From Promethearchaeati archaeon (GTDB lineage: Archaea; Asgardarchaeota; Heimdallarchaeia; JABLTI01), in contig JABLTI010000104.1 of assembly GCA_013166835.1 (NCBI GenBank), forward strand, positions 1 through 12,392: DNA of 12,392 nucleotides, in the 5' to 3' direction. The position numbers were made by a program, and so were the translations under genes. The notes under the pieces were generated by a model. The model was given only the letters and a program-made list of their open reading frames with translations. It was not told the origin of the DNA and searched no databases. Position 1 is the first letter of the stretch. Each line of letters starts with the position of its first letter. This document shows positions 4,060-12,392 of the stretch, piece by piece.

Positions 4060-4485
4060 TTAGTGTTTAACGTCAAAATCTGGACTGACATTACCACGGC
4101 ATTTTCCATAGAAGAAATCTTTTGCACACCAAGTGGTTTTACCGCCTTCAAATGCAAAATTAATTTCACCAGAGTCATAAATTACTCTATCATTTATCTC
4201 AACAACAATCTTATTCAGAATCCATTTATCAGCATGAACACTACGTTCTTTCTTAATGCAGAAATATTGGAACCAATCAGATGTTAAGCCTTCAGGAATA
4301 TCTAAATCGAAATCATCGGTTCGACCTTTTTCAAAATCATCACAGAATGGATGATCTAAATCCCATGTGTGTTCTCCAATGTACAATTTTATTGGGTCAT
4401 CAGTACCACTTCCACGTTTATTATCAGTTGTAACTGTCACTTTCATCTTGTGTATAATTTCACACATATCATCGTCTTCAGACAT
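4060..4485 (-). CDS. Stand-alone PLAT/LH2 domain protein
   Basis: KVTVTT....SGTDDPIKLYI, FEKGRTDDFDL and W.LNKIVV match the PLAT pattern (V.V.T....AGTDA.V.I.L; FERG..D.F; W.L..V.V). ATG start with GGAGG SD at 4499-4495. Confidence 0.8.
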   Translation of the reverse strand: MSEDDDMCEIIHKMKVTVTTDNKRGSGTDDPIKLYIGEHTWDLDHPFCDDFEKGRTDDFDLDIPEGLTSDWFQYFCIKKERSVHADKWILNKIVVEINDRVIYDSGEINFAFEGGKTTWCAKDFFYGKCRGNVSPDFDVKH

Positions 4486-4648: not shown

Positions 4649-6022
4649 CTAATTACTGGGTTTTCCAACACCATAAGCTGCGAAGCCTTTCTTTCGGAAT
4701 TCTTCTAATTTTATGACGTCTCGTCCATCAATAATAATTGGTGTTTTCATTCTGTCTTTTAACCAATCAGCTTTCAAGTCAAAGTATTCTTTGTGCTTTA
4801 CGAAAATAACTGCAATGTCTGCATCTTTAACGGTCTCTTCAAGATCTTTTGAAACCGTGTATGGAAATTCTCGTTGACGAACCAAAGGATCATGAATTAC
4901 CCATTTCACTCCTTCTTTCTCGAGTAGCTCAACATAAGTTTCAGTAGGGGAATTTCTTGTATCTTCTGAGTTTTCAATGAAAGAAGCGCCTAAGATAGCG
5001 ACCTTTGCTTTGGTAAAATCAATGCCTGCATCCTTTGCTCCTTTTTTAGCTAGGGTCACCATATGAGAAGGCATCATTTCATTTCGCATTCTAGCCTTAA
5101 CGATTACATCAAAAGGCACGTCTGTTTTTCCGTAAGTATCAACACCATACTTCAAAAGCCATGGATCTTTTGGTAAACAATGCCCACCAACTCCCGCACC
5201 AGGTAAATGTAAATCACGATAAGCATTAGAATTAAATGGTAGACTATTTACACACTTTCGTACTTCATTGAACTTAACATTAAGTGATTCACAAGCGAGT
5301 GCAACTTCATTAGCAAAAGCAATTTGAACATCTCGATAAGTGTTTTCAACAACTTTAGCGACTTCAGCAGTAGTTGCAGAAACCGGAATTAATTCCTCAT
5401 TTACAATATGCTTGTATAACCATAACCCCTTCTTAGAGCATTCTTCAGTAATTCCGCCTATTATTCGAGGATAGTTAACTATATTGTTAATCAATCTGCC
5501 AACCATAACGCGTTCGTATGCAAAGACTAAGTAAAAATCTTCACCTGTTTTCATACCAGAGTTTTCTTCCAAAATGGGTTTCACAATGAATTCTGTTGTT
5601 CCAGGAGCAACAGTGGACTCAACAGCAATCACTGCTCCTTTTTTCATTTTCTTACCTACAGTAGCAGAAACTTCCCTAAGAGATCGATACAAAGGCTCAT
5701 GAGTATCTTTCTCTGTTGGAGTTTGCACATCGATAAGAATAAAATCCATATCTTTCAGAACATCAGTATCATCGGTTACTCGGAAAGTCTTCTTTTCCAA
5801 TACAACACGCTTTATCAATTCAGGTAAATCTGGTTCATTAAGGATTGGGCACTCGCCCTTATTTAAAGCATCAATCTTCCAAGCAGAACGTTCGGACCGT
5901 CTTTGAATACCAATAACATCAAAACCATCCACATCAGCAAATAATGCAGCTGCAGGTATGCCAACATAGCCCATTCCAATTACCGCAACTTTTGTTTTGT
6001 TAACCAATGGATACCAACTCAC
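4649..6022 (-). CDS. Nucleotide-sugar dehydrogenase (UDP-glucose/GDP-mannose dehydrogenase family, WecC/WbpA-like)
   Basis: VIGMGYVGIP, VQTP, ESTVAPGTT, ERV..G, AEVAKVVENTYRDVQIAFANE, catalytic PGAGVGGHCLPKDP, D.RNSP. GTG start. Exact substrate cannot be determined from sequence. Confidence 0.93.
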   Translation of the reverse strand: MSWYPLVNKTKVAVIGMGYVGIPAAALFADVDGFDVIGIQRRSERSAWKIDALNKGECPILNEPDLPELIKRVVLEKKTFRVTDDTDVLKDMDFILIDVQTPTEKDTHEPLYRSLREVSATVGKKMKKGAVIAVESTVAPGTTEFIVKPILEENSGMKTGEDFYLVFAYERVMVGRLINNIVNYPRIIGGITEECSKKGLWLYKHIVNEELIPVSATTAEVAKVVENTYRDVQIAFANEVALACESLNVKFNEVRKCVNSLPFNSNAYRDLHLPGAGVGGHCLPKDPWLLKYGVDTYGKTDVPFDVIVKARMRNEMMPSHMVTLAKKGAKDAGIDFTKAKVAILGASFIENSEDTRNSPTETYVELLEKEGVKWVIHDPLVRQREFPYTVSKDLEETVKDADIAVIFVKHKEYFDLKADWLKDRMKTPIIIDGRDVIKLEEFRKKGFAAYGVGKPSN

Positions 6023-6124
6023 ATGTAACTTTGATCAAATAAATTAAGAATATTGATAAATTCTCCAAGAATATCTCTTACTCTTTCAGAAAAAGTGCTA
6101 CTTATTACTTTTTCTTTCAGTTTC

Positions 6125-8242
6125 TCATTTTGCGTTAAGTAGTTCAAGCATTTTATTAATGTCATCTGTGGGAAACTTACAAAAACGATTAATACAGACA
6201 TAAGCTGTTGCGTTACCATTTTTCGTAGACTTATATTTCACAAAATCAGTAACACTGGAAATTTCAGGATTCTCCACATCTGAAGGCAAGAACAGAACTA
6301 CTTTATTTGGAACATATTCACTTCTTAATGCTTTTATCATTTCTGCAGTATCAGTTTTTTTGAGATTACCTACAATGACTACTTCAAATGATGGACCAAA
6401 GGCATATTCTAAAGCAGATAAAAATAGTGTAAATGCGAGTAGAGATTGTTCAATTGTTATTGAAAACAATTTGTTTATTTGTACTGCTTTTTCCTCTAAA
6501 CTCAAGTCCATCGTAATTCTAGAGATTCGTAACATGTTTAGCATGGCAACTGAATTTCCAGAAGGGATTGCTCCATCGTAAATTTCTTTCTTACGAACAA
6601 TAAGCTCCTCTCCATCATCTGGGGTGAAGAAGAAAGCTCCCTTATTTTTATCCCAGAAATGTTCAATCATCTTGTCATTGTATTGTATGGCTTTCCTAAG
6701 ATAATCCACTTTAAACGTCGTTTCATATAACTCTAACAAAGCCCAAATAATGAAAGCATAATCATCAATCATACCATTTATAGCAATTTCACCTTCACGA
6801 TAGCGGTGCATTAATCGACCAGAATCTGTTTCCAGGTTTTCAATGATAAAATTAAGAGCTTTTTCAGAAGCTGTGGAATACTCTTCATTTTCAAGAACCC
6901 TACTTGCTTTAGCAAAAGCAGCAATCATTAAACCATTCCAATCTGTTAGAATCTTATCGTCTTTATGTGGATGAATTCGAGTTTTTCGTTTCTCAAAAAG
7001 CTTTACTCTCATACTCTCCAATTTTTCACCTAAATCTTTAGTTGAGATCTTAAGTTCAGAAGCCAAATCTGTAATTGATTTCTTTAAATGAGGAATATTA
7101 CTTCCAGTCTTTTTCTGAGTAGCTTGATCTTTGAAATTGCCATCTTTCTCAAAATTATAAATTTGTAAGAATAAATTACCATCTTCTTTTCCTAGAACTT
7201 CTATTATCTCATCATTTGTCCAAACATAGAATGTCCCTTCTTCACCTTCGCTATCAGCATCTTCTGCTGAATAAAATCCTCCTTCTGGCGACGTCATGTC
7301 TCTTAGGACATAGGAGAGTATTTCTTCTGCAACTTCGCGATACTCGATTTTTTTCGTAGCTTGATAAGCTTCAACATAAGCAATAACTAAGAGTGCTTGA
7401 TCGTAAAGCATCTTTTCAAAATGTGGTAGAAGCCAAAAGGAATCAGTAGAATATCGATGGAAACCAAAACCAATGTGATCAAAAATACCTCCTAAACGCA
7501 TCTCCGTAAGCGTTTTCTCCACCATCATTAAAGCTGCTTTATTCCCGGTTCTTTTCCAAAATCGAAGCAGAAACATTAACTTATGCGGAGTCGGAAATTT
7601 CGGTGCTCCTCTAAAACCGCCATTTTTCTCATCAAAAAGAAGAGTAGCTTCACGAAAAGCTTCGTTTAATATATCTTGCTTCAATTCCTCTCCAGGTGTC
7701 GTATCCAAACTCTGGAGCTGAGAAATAACCTCTTTAGCTGCTAAACGTAATTCTTCACGATTATTATCCCAATAATCCTTTATTTTTGGGATCAATTCTA
7801 GCATCCCAATTCGACCAAAACGACTCTCTTTTGGAAAGTACGTACCCGCAGTAAATGGCTTCTTATCTGCATCCATTATAATAGTTAAAGGCCAACCACC
7901 ACTACCAGTAATCATTTGACTGACTGTCATGTAAATGTTATCAATTTCAGGTCTTTCTTCTCTATCAACCTTAATATTCACAAAAGTCTCATTCATGAGT
8001 TTCGCAACTACAGGATCCTCAAATGATTCATGTGCCATAACATGACACCAATGACAAGTAGAATAACCTATAGAGAGAAATATTGGTTTATCTTCCTTCT
8101 TCGCTTTCTCAAAAGCTTCTTCGCCCCATGGATACCAATCCACAGGATTTGTTGCATGTTGTAATAAATATGGACTTTTTTCTTTAATTAACCGATTAGT
8201 TTTTGGTTTATTTTTATTAGTGGTTTTTTTACTCAAAATCAA
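6125..8242 (-). CDS. Thioredoxin-domain-containing protein, YyaL/SSP411 (SPATA20-like) family
   Basis: [90 protein letters not shown]. The true start may be TTG at 8236, which has better spacing from AGGTG at 8249-8245. Confidence 0.95.
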
Positions 8243-8913: not shown

Positions 8914-9426
8914 TTACTTGCCATATAATTGCTTGAGCAAGATTTCTCTAGCTATAGATTGGAAAGCTCTCTTAACACCTATTCCTTTTGTAGCAATTGT
9001 TTCATAAACAGGATAACCATCAAGACCAAGTCCGGAAAGCATTTCAGGTCGAGTAAGAGCGCCTGGAACATCCCTTTTATTCAAAGTAACAACAATGGGG
9101 ACTTCTTTTCCAAAACTATCTCCTAAGAAATCTTTGAGTTCATCAACGGATTCTTGATTATATTTTTGCATTTCTGGAGTGGAATCTAGCATAAGAATGA
9201 TTCCATCAACGCCACGAAGGATAACTTTCCTTTGGCTTTTGTGTCTAGTCTGTCCAGCTACTGTATAGGCATCAAGAATAACTCGTCCAGAAGCTGAAAA
9301 TGGGGTAAAATCGAAATAAAGAGTTCTACCAGTAGGATCAGCGATTGATGTAAAACCACCTTTAGTTAAACCTTCAACCTGGTCGTAGAGCCATCGTAAA
9401 CCTGTAGTTTTTTCATTGTGTGCTAT
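8914..9426 (-). pseudogene. 5'-truncated MglA-type small GTPase
   Basis: The frame of the 92-aa ORF stays open to 9426 (stop at 9429-9427) and reads IAHNE-KTTGLRWLYDQVEG...TGRTLYFDF...YTVAGQ...ILRGVDGIILMLDS...TLNKRD...ETIATKGIGV. It has MglA-type G2-G5 motifs but only the KTT end of G1, and no in-frame start codon upstream of KTT. Confidence 0.75.
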
Positions 9427-9557
9427 TTATAAGGGAAATTATATGCGTTATATGTTTTTCTATCTAGTGCTACGGTTAATTCTTTTCGTGTTGGATAAAA
9501 AAACTATTGGTTGGTGTAAATCTTATCCTTAAGAATACTTTCTTTGCTACTAAATAA

Positions 9558-11042
9558 TCATCTTGTAGGATGCCTATCAGGATGCTTGTCTGAGTAGTAT
9601 CTAAGTAAATCTGTGAAACCAAAATCAAGACTTGTTTGTTGTGCTTCCTTTAATTGTTGCTCGATCATGTAGATTTTTTGTGTTGTTTTCTCTCTTCTTG
9701 AGAAATAAACTTCTGGAGTAATACTTCGATCATTAAAAGCTTTAATTAGTTCACGAAGTGTATCTTTAGCAGCTTTCAATTCAATCTTGAGATTCATTAC
9801 TTCTTCAGATTCAACTTGTCGTCTAGGTTCAATAGGTCGTTCTCTGAGTTGCTGTGTAGAGGGTGAAAAAGGTATTTCCTTCAAATCCTTAATACGTTTA
9901 TCGAGCTTGTCTTTTAGATGACTAAAGTTTAGTGTAGCTCGGTAATTTTCCATCATATATGGATCTGTAACAATATAATTTTCATTTTCATTAAAAAGAA
10001 TACCAAAAATGAATTTGAGTTTAGTAATGATGTCATCTGGACATTTTATTTTGATTAAACTCTTTTCAGACATGTTGATGAATAATTGATTCCCAGTGAA
10101 AATGTTACTCTTGGAATCTATATCTTTAATCATGGAAATAGGAACAGATTTAACTTTTTTATTGAGTAGTTTTGATCTAAGTAAGAAGTACATTTTCTTA
10201 TTAGTTATAAATAGAGTACCAACTTTCTTGCGTTTATCTGATGGGAAGGCCATTTTAATATTTGGAAAAGCAGCAATCTTGAGTTCATATATTTCAGGTT
10301 CGAATTTCTCAACAACATTATCGAATAATTCTGAATATAATTTTAATTCTTTTACTTTTACTTCAATGTCTTCCAATTCATTCAAAGGATCACTAAGATA
10401 ATCAGTGAGAATATTGGAGTAACTTAATGCATGAGTTTTAATAATTTTGAGAGTTTTATCGATTCCCCTTAATTTACTGACGGAAATATTTTGATTGAAG
10501 ATAAGAGTTCTAGCATCTTGATATATATGTTGACTAACTTTGTCTAGGATTTCTGATGCTCTTTGAATTATTTCATAAAAGAGATCTTGTATGCGCAATA
10601 AGTTACCTTCAATGTTTGGATAAAGCCCAAAACGTTCTCTACGCATATGTTTTGCTTGAGTTACAATTTCAGAATACTTATTAGCAAAAGCTTTGATAGT
10701 ATCCAGACCTGTGCTTAACGAATTAACGTTACTGCTAAATTCCTCCGTAAGTCCATCGATTTTTCTCTTTGAATCTTTGATCTTAATTGATGAACACATT
10801 GGACATCGTTTCAAAGTTTTCTCAGCAGTTAGATGGTTTATTTTCCCGCAAATTTCACACTTATTTCCAATGCTTATGTGCGAACACTCATTACAATAGG
10901 TACAATCAGTTTTCTCAGAAACAATGCAAGCAGTGCAAAACGTGCCACCACATTCTTCACAATAATATAGATAATCATTATATTGATAACACTTTAAGCA
11001 TTTTTTATTCGAATCATATCCCAATTTTAGTCTCACGCTCAA
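9558..11042 (-). CDS. Multidomain protein: FYVE-like multi-zinc finger, helical/coiled-coil stalk, PH/GRAM-like domain and steadiness-box-like C-terminus
   Basis: 494-aa ORF. Six CxxC pairs in residues 15-83; helical residues about 90-245; GTLFITNKKMYF followed by beta-rich sequence (about 248-350); AAKDTLRELIKAFNDRSITPEVYF...KIYMIEQQL (424-464). The ORF itself is secure, the domain calls are by eye. Confidence 0.7.
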   Translation of the reverse strand: MSVRLKLGYDSNKKCLKCYQYNDYLYYCEECGGTFCTACIVSEKTDCTYCNECSHISIGNKCEICGKINHLTAEKTLKRCPMCSSIKIKDSKRKIDGLTEEFSSNVNSLSTGLDTIKAFANKYSEIVTQAKHMRRERFGLYPNIEGNLLRIQDLFYEIIQRASEILDKVSQHIYQDARTLIFNQNISVSKLRGIDKTLKIIKTHALSYSNILTDYLSDPLNELEDIEVKVKELKLYSELFDNVVEKFEPEIYELKIAAFPNIKMAFPSDKRKKVGTLFITNKKMYFLLRSKLLNKKVKSVPISMIKDIDSKSNIFTGNQLFINMSEKSLIKIKCPDDIITKLKFIFGILFNENENYIVTDPYMMENYRATLNFSHLKDKLDKRIKDLKEIPFSPSTQQLRERPIEPRRQVESEEVMNLKIELKAAKDTLRELIKAFNDRSITPEVYFSRREKTTQKIYMIEQQLKEAQQTSLDFGFTDLLRYYSDKHPDRHPTR

Positions 11043-11355
11043 ATTGTTTGTGGTTCCAAGTCGTTAATACAAAAGTATTCAACGAGTGATACTATCATCT
11101 AAATGTAATCTCATAAGCACAGATTCTTACATCTAGTAATTTTATTTCATATAAAAGAAGGCTTTATTTGAAAATAAGTGATTGTAATATGAGGATGTTT
11201 TCCTAACAATGCTTAAAATAACTGTTTTTTCTTGCTTTACATTATAAAGCAAACATTTTAGGTATGCTTTAAACGAAAAATAAATGAAGGGTGAAACTAA
11301 ATAATTAATACCTAAGTGAAAATATAATATTGTGAATGAAGGTGTGCTAAAAGGG

Positions 11356-12392
11356 ATGGAAGACAAGAAATCATCAGACTTCCTTTGGAAGATTGTACTC
11401 TGCGGTACAAGTTTCGTAGGCAAAACAACAGTAAGAAAAAGAGCTATGGGAGAGCATTTTGCAGAAGAGTATATTTCAACCGTAGGAGCTGATTTTTCTT
11501 CATATAAATTAAAACTTGGAGATTTGACTATAGGATTTCAAGTATGGGACTTAGCTGGTCAAGACAAGTACAAATATATTCGCTCAAGTTTTTATGGAGG
11601 AGCAACAGGATGCTTCTTAGTTTTTGATGTTACAAATCCAAAATCCATGAAGGATTTATCCTCATGGGTGGACGAAGCAATTAGATATTCAAATGGAACT
11701 ATTGAGATTTTTGTGATTTGTGCGAATAAAATTGATTTGAAAGATAATCGAGAAATAACAAAGGATATGGGAGAACAATATGCTTTAGCATTAAGAGAGA
11801 GCTCTGGTCTTCAATGCGAATATATTGAAACATCTGCACTAACTGGAGAAAACATTGACGTTGCTTTTGATTTAATGGCAAAGTGTTTACTTGAACGTGA
11901 AGGAATTAGTCCTGTTGGACCAAAAGAAGAAATTATTGAGGTAGCTGAAGAAAAGACCGCAAGTGTTACTGAAGCTCAAATAGAAGGATCCGAACCTTTG
12001 GCTGTTGAAAGTATTAGCGAAACATCCACTACCAAAGTAATTGATACAATACCATCGACAAGTAAATCAATAATCATAGAGGAAGATAGTGGGGAAGCAA
12101 CAGAGAAATTAATTGCAGAAGTAATGGCTGTTCTCGATGAAACTGATGAGATAATTATCGGACGGGAAAAAACAGAAGATGGAGAACGAGCAATAACAAT
12201 TACCAAGGATGAAATAACAGAACGCGTTGTAGACGACGATGAACAAGCTCCTGAAATTAGTAACGAATTGGAACGAGTTCTGGGACAAATAAATATCAAA
12301 CTTGACAGCTTAACTGATCGATTAAAAGGTCTAGAAGAAGAAATTTCTCAAGTAAAACCTGAAGAATTAGTGGCAGAACCAGAAGAGGAAAT
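11356..12392 (+). CDS. Rab-like small GTPase with long acidic C-terminal extension (3' partial)
   Basis: Manual translation gives 345 codons with no stop up to the window end: KIVLCGTSFVGKTT (G1), YISTVGADF (G2), QVWDLAGQ (G3), ANKIDL (G4), ETSALTG (G5). GAAGGTG SD-like motif at 11338-11344. In-frame GTG alternatives at 11332 and 11344. Missing from the ORF track. Confidence 0.92.
   Translation, partial: MEDKKSSDFLWKIVLCGTSFVGKTTVRKRAMGEHFAEEYISTVGADFSSYKLKLGDLTIGFQVWDLAGQDKYKYIRSSFYGGATGCFLVFDVTNPKSMKDLSSWVDEAIRYSNGTIEIFVICANKIDLKDNREITKDMGEQYALALRESSGLQCEYIETSALTGENIDVAFDLMAKCLLEREGISPVGPKEEIIEVAEEKTASVTEAQIEGSEPLAVESISETSTTKVIDTIPSTSKSIIIEEDSGEATEKLIAEVMAVLDETDEIIIGREKTEDGERAITITKDEITERVVDDDEQAPEISNELERVLGQINIKLDSLTDRLKGLEEEISQVKPEELVAEPEEE

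Follow-up and report, generated by a model that had tools for sequence, protein, structure and literature searches.

In eukaryotes, EEA1 and rabenosyn-5 combine FYVE fingers with coiled coils and act as Rab5 effectors, and the Rabs themselves carry a prenylated tail. In Asgard archaea, the text of Makarova et al. [quoted passage not shown] Small GTPases of the MglA family are defined, according to PMC3000849 and PMC10933270, by a Thr in place of Asp in the DxxG motif and an Arg in switch I. Here we examine a locus that brings together genes resembling these systems. The window, by which we mean the whole stretch analysed, is one entire contig of 12,392 nucleotides (nt) (JABLTI010000104.1, our C12) from a Heimdall-type Asgard genome bin that is 85% complete (G000); in it, a Znr_PH_CC_SB-type adaptor gene lies between an MglA-type and a Rab-like GTPase gene. 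We conclude that these are probably three separately transcribed genes of known Asgard kinds, placed side by side by lineage-specific rearrangements, and that a dedicated module is doubtful.

The MglA-type gene and the adaptor gene share the reverse strand, and the adaptor gene is head-to-head with the Rab-like gene on the forward strand. The features of the locus, in window positions, are as follows.

8914-9426, reverse strand: MglA-type GTPase gene as assembled, with codons 21-187 and the stop (8914-8916); from stop to stop the frame has 170 amino acids (aa)
9412/9413, no strand: junction at which 77 nt are missing, from the alignment with 10 relatives
9423-9432, reverse strand: TATA-like element (TTATAAATAG), within the spacer that separates the adaptor and MglA-like genes
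9558-11042, reverse strand: adaptor gene, an open reading frame (ORF) for 494 aa, Znr_PH_CC_SB type
9630-9806, reverse strand: adaptor C-terminal helical hairpin, residues 413-471, from the AlphaFold2 (AF2) model
9990-10280, reverse strand: adaptor PH domain, residues 255-351, from fold matches
10317-10772, reverse strand: three long helices of the adaptor, residues 91-242, from the AF2 model
10773-11006, reverse strand: adaptor Zn ribbons, residues ~13-90, from model hairpins and Cys conservation
11043-11355, no strand: divergent intergenic region, 313 nt to the Rab ATG, from the alignment of 11 loci
11356-12392, forward strand: Rab-like GTPase gene, ATG at 11356 (GTG at 11332), first 345 codons, cut by the contig end
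11356-11931, forward strand: Rab-like G domain (Pfam Ras, E 1.2e-39), followed by an acidic linker

To place this arrangement we used a class sample of 61 genomes, 60 of them relatives sampled by genome search, and denote the window's family f1, its genus g1, the sister genus g2 and other families f2-f5. The Rab-like neighbour stands beside the adaptor at 10/10 g1 loci, and a glycosyltransferase gene takes its place in g2. The MglA-like neighbour is present beside the adaptor in 11/11 f1 genomes. The earlier note on this DNA had named synteny in related genomes as a check on its proposal of a co-regulated module, and the outcome is mixed: the order is kept in close relatives, but it does not extend beyond the genus for the Rab-like gene or beyond the family for the MglA-like gene, adaptor and MglA-like gene being adjacent in 0/25 non-f1 genomes with an adaptor homolog. 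In three genomes outside f1 (two closed, one in 10 contigs) the two genes share a contig, at distances of 680, 801 and 91 kb; otherwise they are on different contigs. When the 5-kb flanks of 25 adaptor loci, several of them cut by contig ends, were searched with 21 GTPase queries, a GTPase was found in 1/25. For synteny, this is the outcome that the earlier note had listed as refuting. Within the same 10-kb block as the three genes, a Bcp-DUF255-UDPGDH (UDP-glucose dehydrogenase) block is collinear over the same genomes; because these unrelated housekeeping genes are equally conserved, family-level synteny carries no specific signal. Judged by gene order, the juxtaposition is young, of genus age for the Rab-like gene and of family age for the MglA-like gene.

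The MglA-like gene appears to have come from elsewhere. An intact relative finds MglA structures as its best Protein Data Bank (PDB) matches (3t12 at E 2.4e-36, MglA chains to 2e-35), with Arl8 as the next family at 4e-9. The DxxG motif of this relative has a T for the D (YTVAGQ, aligned to YTVPGQ of 3t12), and the switch-I Arg is present (GRTLYFDF, aligned to ERTLFFDF of 3t12). Orthologs occur in 61/61 class-sample genomes at 57-64% identity, and at 12/12 non-f1 loci, from six other families, a Roadblock/LC7 gene lies directly beside the ortholog. In G000 the Roadblock orthologs face each other tail to tail on contig C59, ~90 nt apart and without a GTPase gene between them; the same pair, 67-94 nt apart and equally empty, occurs in 5/5 other f1 genomes.

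G000:C59:11744-12031, forward strand (L084:6745-7038): Roadblock/LC7 gene, highly conserved
G000:C59:12124-12612, reverse strand (L084:7125-7613): Roadblock/LC7 gene, highly conserved

Because the MglA-like gene is flanked by Roadblock genes elsewhere and the pair is emptied in f1, we conclude that it left the Roadblock cluster in the f1 ancestor. On this comparison of gene order, the tail-to-tail spacer is the slot it vacated. A Rag-like GTPase of 436 aa is encoded ~3.4 kb from the tail-to-tail pair on C59.

Signals between the genes point to separate transcription. The spacer from the adaptor gene to the MglA-like gene is 157 nt long and contains a TATA-like box and a ribosome-binding site. 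The same TATA-like element occurs in the closest relatives, L021-L023, others have a related A/T-rich box, and we infer that the element is a candidate promoter of the MglA-like gene itself. Because the spacer gives the MglA-like gene these signals of its own, an operon is not indicated, and each of the three genes would have a promoter of its own.

On the other side of the adaptor, the 313-bp shared upstream region put forward in the earlier note is exact, spanning 11043-11355 up to the Rab-like ATG at 11356. It contains a 23-nt block (11168-11190, forward strand) in which 15/23 positions are invariant in 11 genus loci amid diverged surroundings, and in the same alignment a second block, rich in A, is conserved ~60-80 nt upstream of the Rab ATG. 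The 23-nt block has a single match in the window and was matched in 0/200 shuffles; we rejected it as a shared regulon motif since the genome has no second copy of it at up to 3 substitutions. No Rfam family matched the block, and none was found in an Rfam scan of the whole window. Scanning for sigma-70 promoters and terminators gave results at shuffle level, from a model that is of no relevance for an archaeon.

We then asked how unusual the layout is. G000 has 36 small-GTPase loci. In 200,000 placements of a random 1485-nt slot, a GTPase lay within 600 nt on both sides in 0.06% (this locus included) and on at least one side in 1.45%; a GTPase lay within 2.5 kb of a random adaptor-sized slot in 6.4%. 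By chance ~0.2 genes per genome are expected to have such flanks on both sides, and the locus was picked after the fact. Two-sided GTPase flanking is unusual for one given gene, but not for a genome searched for oddities.

Outside f1, the adaptor is often found in ESCRT clusters. Single-sequence searches detected homologs in 37/61 genomes, profile searches added a divergent ~450-aa form in 5/5 genomes of two families seemingly without the adaptor, and the divergent ~450-aa form is present in 21/22 genomes of genus g4. In reverse BLAST, homologs from f2, f4 and f5 hit only the window gene in G000 at E <= 1e-10, and a fourth distant homolog, L040, reached only 3e-7. In f2, an ATP-synthase-c-like gene and a Snf7-Snf7 pair lie within 5 kb of the adaptor at 13/18 loci; of the other 5, 3 are cut by contig ends and 2 are without the Snf7 pair. 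The f3 cluster reads Vps25, Vps4, Snf7, Snf7, EAP30, adaptor, Vps28, UEV (4/4 loci; positions in 19 genomes), and the single f5 locus (1/1) has the order adaptor-Yip1-UEV-Vps28. In f4 the neighbour is ribosomal protein S26e (5/5 loci), with no ESCRT context. The f1 adaptor is not encoded with ESCRT genes, and in G000 UEV-Vps23core, Vps28 and EAP30 are on contig C110 without it.

Two candidate observations were set aside. Linkage of the adaptor to Snf7 in f1, at ~13 kb in G000 (via contig C147) and 14 kb in G005, was not counted; the flanks of three further genus members showed no Snf7. A second adaptor-like match in G008 (C107 = L069) was dropped as probably a misbinned contig of an f2-type organism: this 3.6-kb contig in a g1 bin carries adaptor, ATP-synthase-c-like and Snf7 genes with 87% identity to their f2 counterparts. 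Separately, on C147 of G000 (4765-5673 and 5802-6407, both reverse strand) a GTPase-like gene for 303 aa lies 129 nt downstream of a Snf7 gene, and this pair is also kept in G005.

Several findings weigh against three independent genes. Two-sided GTPase flanking is rare for a random gene, and the adjacency persisted while the adaptor diverged to 45% identity. The genus-conserved blocks in the divergent intergenic region could serve both genes. A small GTPase also lies near the adaptor in 3/5 informative families versus the 6.4% background (<=2.5 kb), with a nominal binomial p of ~0.002 for 3/5 that is post hoc and comes from a small sample with a background taken from one genome.

These findings lend themselves to a functional GTPase-adaptor module, in which the GTP-bound Rab-like and/or MglA-like protein recruits or releases the ESCRT-I-type adaptor at membranes and the genes are kept together for this reason. 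We consider such a module doubtful. Its adjacency is stable across the genus (Rab 10/10) and the family (MglA 11/11), but unrelated neighbour genes are conserved equally well. The MglA gene quit its Roadblock cluster and landed exactly beside the adaptor, yet its highly conserved Roadblock partners are retained elsewhere in the genome. Against the conserved blocks in the shared upstream region stands the 157-nt spacer on the other side, with its own TATA-like box and ribosome-binding site. Non-orthologous GTPases near adaptor or ESCRT-I genes in f3 and f5 would fit a module, but the adaptor homologs of f2 (0/18 loci) and f4 (0/5) have no GTPase within 5 kb, and there is no pattern of co-occurrence: MglA is class-wide, and the adaptor is more widespread than the genus-limited Rab-like gene. 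In solved structures, PH domains and helical hairpins are common GTPase-binding surfaces, with Exo84-RalA and SIN1-KRAS among the fold matches. Short contigs from RNA runs X19 and X20 cover parts of all three genes, a weak hint of expression that carries no information on strand, level or co-transcription. Of the 'co-regulated GTPase-effector module' in the earlier note, we therefore retain a membrane-trafficking-type adaptor and two GTPases and regard the dedicated module as doubtful, given that the synteny is shallow and an operon is not indicated.

The GTPases of other families deserve attention in their own right. The UEV-Vps28 unit of f3 opens with a gene for a 405-420-aa protein, at a distance of 1.5-2.0 kb from the adaptor gene, in 19/19 genomes with both genes. 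This protein joins a C-terminal Ras-family domain (Pfam Ras, 8.8e-37) to an unassigned N-terminal half of ~200 aa, and its ubiquitin-ESCRT cluster comprises Vps25, Vps4, two Snf7 genes, EAP30, the adaptor, Vps28, UEV, Yip1 with a Zn ribbon, and ThiF/E1.

L079:8474-9697, reverse strand: Ras-domain fusion gene, also in 18 further g4 genomes

In f5, a Rag-like gene lies 2.5 kb from the adaptor homolog. The f3 and f5 GTPases are non-orthologous to those of the window, and the recurrence of unrelated GTPases near the adaptor in other families is a lead worth following. It could mean that GTPases of different subfamilies were placed repeatedly and independently beside adaptor or ESCRT-I genes in Heimdall-type Asgards, reflecting a GTPase-switched recruitment of the adaptor to membranes as a forerunner of the way in which eukaryotes couple small GTPases to endosomal sorting. 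We hold this broader scenario to be unlikely.

We next turn to the state of the MglA-like gene, which is co-directional with the adaptor gene. The window copy is without a start codon and P-loop; the fragment matches Pfam Arf (5e-8) and Ras (9e-6) and is 98% identical to residues 21-187 of an intact 187-aa relative. In relatives, the 77-nt stretch contains a GAGGT ribosome-binding site, a TTG start and the first 20 codons with most of the P-loop. Run X1, from a possible source sample, yields a single 10,760-nt contig at depth 35 that has 77 extra letters at 9412/9413 and is otherwise identical. Contigs of run X5, from another study, have loose ends at 9412 and at 9413, and these contain the two termini of the same 77 nt. 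All other f1 genomes (11/11) have the complete gene (187 aa), at 88-99% identity, and it is the best conserved gene of the locus. Because the relatives and the X1 and X5 contigs carry the 77 nt, we take the truncated form to be an assembly fault or a minor allele, the gene probably being intact in nature. The earlier note had called this an 'MglA-type GTPase remnant'; the family was right, but the 77 nt in 11/11 relatives and in the X1 and X5 contigs speak against a remnant as biology.

A true strain-level lesion, by which the organism lost its MglA-like switch and kept a pseudogene, is very unlikely. The deposited contig does carry the deletion, and a loss of 77 nt, not a multiple of three, removes the ribosome-binding site, start codon and P-loop. 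However, the sole X1 contig over the site (depth 35, possible source) and the X5 contigs hold the 77 nt, the remainder of the frame is undamaged, and no gene of the locus is more conserved (88-99% in the family, 57-64% in the class, 61/61 genomes). Contigs drop rare variants, and a minority deletion allele may escape this comparison.

The adaptor itself fits a described family. Across 26 homologs, 11 Cys residues are invariant and one is nearly so, consistent with three N-terminal Zn ribbons. The AF2 model (predicted local distance difference test (pLDDT) 84.8) places Zn-ribbon beta-hairpin strands at residues 13-90 (pLDDT about 80-90), helices at 110-135, 143-177 and 188-242 (pLDDT above 90) and a C-terminal hairpin of helices 413-437 and 443-471. 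The modelled PH domain (~245-355) aligns with many PH domains at VIA Z 12-13, with a root-mean-square deviation (rmsd) of 2.3-2.8 A over 89-108 residues, and top matches include the GLUE domain of Vps36/EAP45 and the GRAM domains of MTMR (myotubularin) proteins. Pfam searches over the 26 members returned weak matches that agree with this: PH-type families (GRAM in 11/26, bPH_3 in 7/26; best E 1.2e-6), zf-B_box in 11/26 and Vps23_core in 2/26 (best E 0.0063); the window protein itself matched bPH_3 at E 0.019, below the cut-off. A PDB profile search with the adaptor alignment gave coiled-coil and small Zn-ribbon noise (best E 0.001), and an NCBIfam scan of the adaptor found no family.

By its predicted architecture, and not by asCOG profile, the adaptor belongs to Znr_PH_CC_SB. 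The earlier note's view of the middle gene as a membrane-trafficking-type adaptor agrees with this putative ESCRT-I assignment and with the homologs in ESCRT clusters, and its placement of that gene between two different small GTPases was borne out by the sequence matches of the Rab-like and MglA-type genes. Its analogy with FYVE proteins such as EEA1 and rabenosyn, in contrast, fails on the type of Zn finger. The adaptor sites are ribbons or B-box-like, the adaptor protein sequence contains no FYVE R(R/K)HHCR motif, and a FYVE model is not among the 25 listed of the 38 Pfam families found in the 26 members. The text of PMC10936438 links no GTPase to Znr_PH_CC_SB, 10 of its 12 supplementary files (the set outside files 7 and 9) hold no cog.011556 or small-GTPase entries, and the word 'GTPase' is absent from the main text of Hatano et al. 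2022 (PMC9192718).

We give almost no credence to the adaptor being a regulator whose helical bundle and PH domain would work on a neighbouring GTPase in the manner of a DH-PH exchange factor. Foldseek gives many DH-PH RhoGEF modules over 310-400 columns at E about 1e-4, and in VIA the match to Trio DH/PH (1nty) reaches Z 11.6 with 165 residues aligned. However, the long Foldseek alignments have rmsd 18-23 A and template modelling (TM) scores of 0.2-0.3, and the Z score is no higher than for PH-only matches (12-13, ~95 residues, 2.3-2.8 A), so that nothing is gained from the helical part. The modelled helices are three long ones and not a DH bundle, and homologs are placed in ESCRT clusters.

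The remaining gene encodes a complete G domain. Motifs G1-G5 (GxxxxGKT, TxGxDF, DLAGQ, NKID, ETSAL), the catalytic Gln among them, are invariant in 11 sequences, and all 60 PDB matches listed for the domain are Rab/Ypt/Sec4 proteins, led by a Thorarchaeota Rab (7ezb, 5.6e-34) and followed by Ypt1, Rab8, Rab10 and Rab1. We call the gene Rab-like on these motifs and closest structures, not on phylogeny. Full-length relatives of ~550-590 aa continue after the G domain with an acidic linker of ~350 aa, in which a helix is conserved, and end in a CxxC...CxxC Zn ribbon; in these relatives the ribbon is followed by five non-Cys residues and there is no prenylatable C-terminal Cys motif. The full-length gene is found only in g1 (10/10 genomes), and G000 has a paralog of the same build on contig C156. 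In G000 itself, C147 continues C12 after a gap of ~845 nt, within which the Rab-like gene ends.

In most genus members the next ORF downstream of the Rab-like gene has ~155 aa; in G000 its place falls in the gap between C12 and C147. It is present at L023:8534-8998 (forward strand), at L024:2494-2967 (reverse strand) and in L022, L026, L027 and L029, and is fragmented or shortened in L021, L028 and L030. Signals for its identity are weak: Pfam Fuz_longin_1 at E 0.0023 (L024, the one member scanned of seven), an Atlas lead 'Roadblock/LAMTOR2' (0.90, rank 10) and an AF2 model from an alignment of 7 (pLDDT 44) that is too poor for a fold search, with a b-b-a-b-b-b-a order that fits a longin domain.

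Elsewhere in the window, a 141-aa protein (4060-4485, reverse strand) has a PLAT/LH2 domain (Pfam E 1.5e-6); this beta-sandwich is lipid-associated and most familiar in lipoxygenases and lipases of eukaryotes. Three genus members have a second peroxiredoxin gene, of AhpC/TSA type, which lies between the MglA-like gene and Bcp (L024:7300-7794, L025:3601-4089, L030:3573-4043). The DUF255 gene of L024 matches in several shifted pieces and may be frameshifted.

Under the preferred reading of three separate genes, each product would have its own task. Judging from its fold, from the assignment already published and from the ESCRT synteny of its homologs, the adaptor is most likely an accessory or alternative ESCRT-I subunit. 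Its C-terminal hairpin, which resembles a steadiness box, would dock on the Vps23/Vps28 headpiece, the GRAM/GLUE-like PH domain may bind membrane or ubiquitin, and the three Zn ribbons may bind cargo or partners. The downstream gene would encode an intact, class-wide MglA-family switch whose regular partners are two Roadblock (MglB-like) proteins, and its move from the Roadblock cluster to behind the adaptor would date to the f1 ancestor. The upstream gene would encode a genus-specific Rab-like switch with an acidic linker and a Zn ribbon in place of the prenylated tail.

Together, this analysis turns what looked like a pseudogene into a probable assembly fault, assigns the middle gene, whose neighbours are of known Asgard kinds, to a published family, and documents the clean relocation of an MglA-type gene out of its Roadblock cluster. 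Synteny within one family proved too shallow here to argue function. If an ESCRT-I-type adaptor is indeed switched by a small GTPase in this archaeon, closely related to eukaryotes, then GTPase signalling and ESCRT sorting would have been linked before eukaryotes arose, and the Ras-family fusion gene in the f3 ESCRT cluster is a better place to test that idea.

Set against the described systems, the adaptor is closest to Znr_PH_CC_SB as presented in the text of PMC10936438. It shares the three Zn ribbons at the N terminus, the coiled-coil or helical region, the PH domain and the helical hairpin at the C terminus, and it is likewise Asgard-restricted with homologs encoded inside ESCRT clusters. 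Unlike the genes in that text, which names no such neighbours, the f1 gene has left the ESCRT cluster and lies between two GTPase genes. With the GLUE domain of the ESCRT-II protein Vps36/EAP45 (2cay, 2hth) the adaptor shares a GRAM-like PH fold (2hth_B, Z 12.4, 2.7 A, 105 residues; 2cay, TM 0.63 normalised by target), although sequence identity is 10-13% and other PH domains score equally. The yeast protein also combines Zn fingers with its PH domain, but the adaptor is without the winged-helix ESCRT-II core domains and its Zn ribbons are N-terminal and not inserted in the PH domain. EEA1 and rabenosyn-5 are similar in joining a Zn module, long helices and a lipid-binding-type domain, and the adaptor gene lies beside a Rab-like gene; they differ in that the adaptor has ribbon or B-box-like Zn sites and no FYVE signature.

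The two GTPases each resemble a known switch and depart from it. The Thorarchaeota Rab (7ezb), Rab1/Ypt1, Rab8 and Rab10 are the best G-domain matches of the Rab-like protein (E 6e-34 to 1e-30), and Thorarchaeota and eukaryotic Rabs share with it an intact P-loop, switch I TxGxDF, DxxGQ, NKxD and SA(L/K). Unlike them, it has no prenylation tail and ends instead in the acidic linker of ~350 aa and terminal Zn ribbon. The MglA-MglB systems of Thermus thermophilus and Myxococcus xanthus (3t12, 6hjh, 5ymx) align end to end with the intact MglA-like relative (E 2e-36), which has both the Thr for the Walker-B Asp and the switch-I Arg, and Roadblock genes adjoin its ortholog at 12/12 loci of other families. 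The Asgard protein is archaeal and has two different Roadblock partners (~100 and ~163 aa), and in f1 its gene has parted from the Roadblock genes and lies behind the adaptor.

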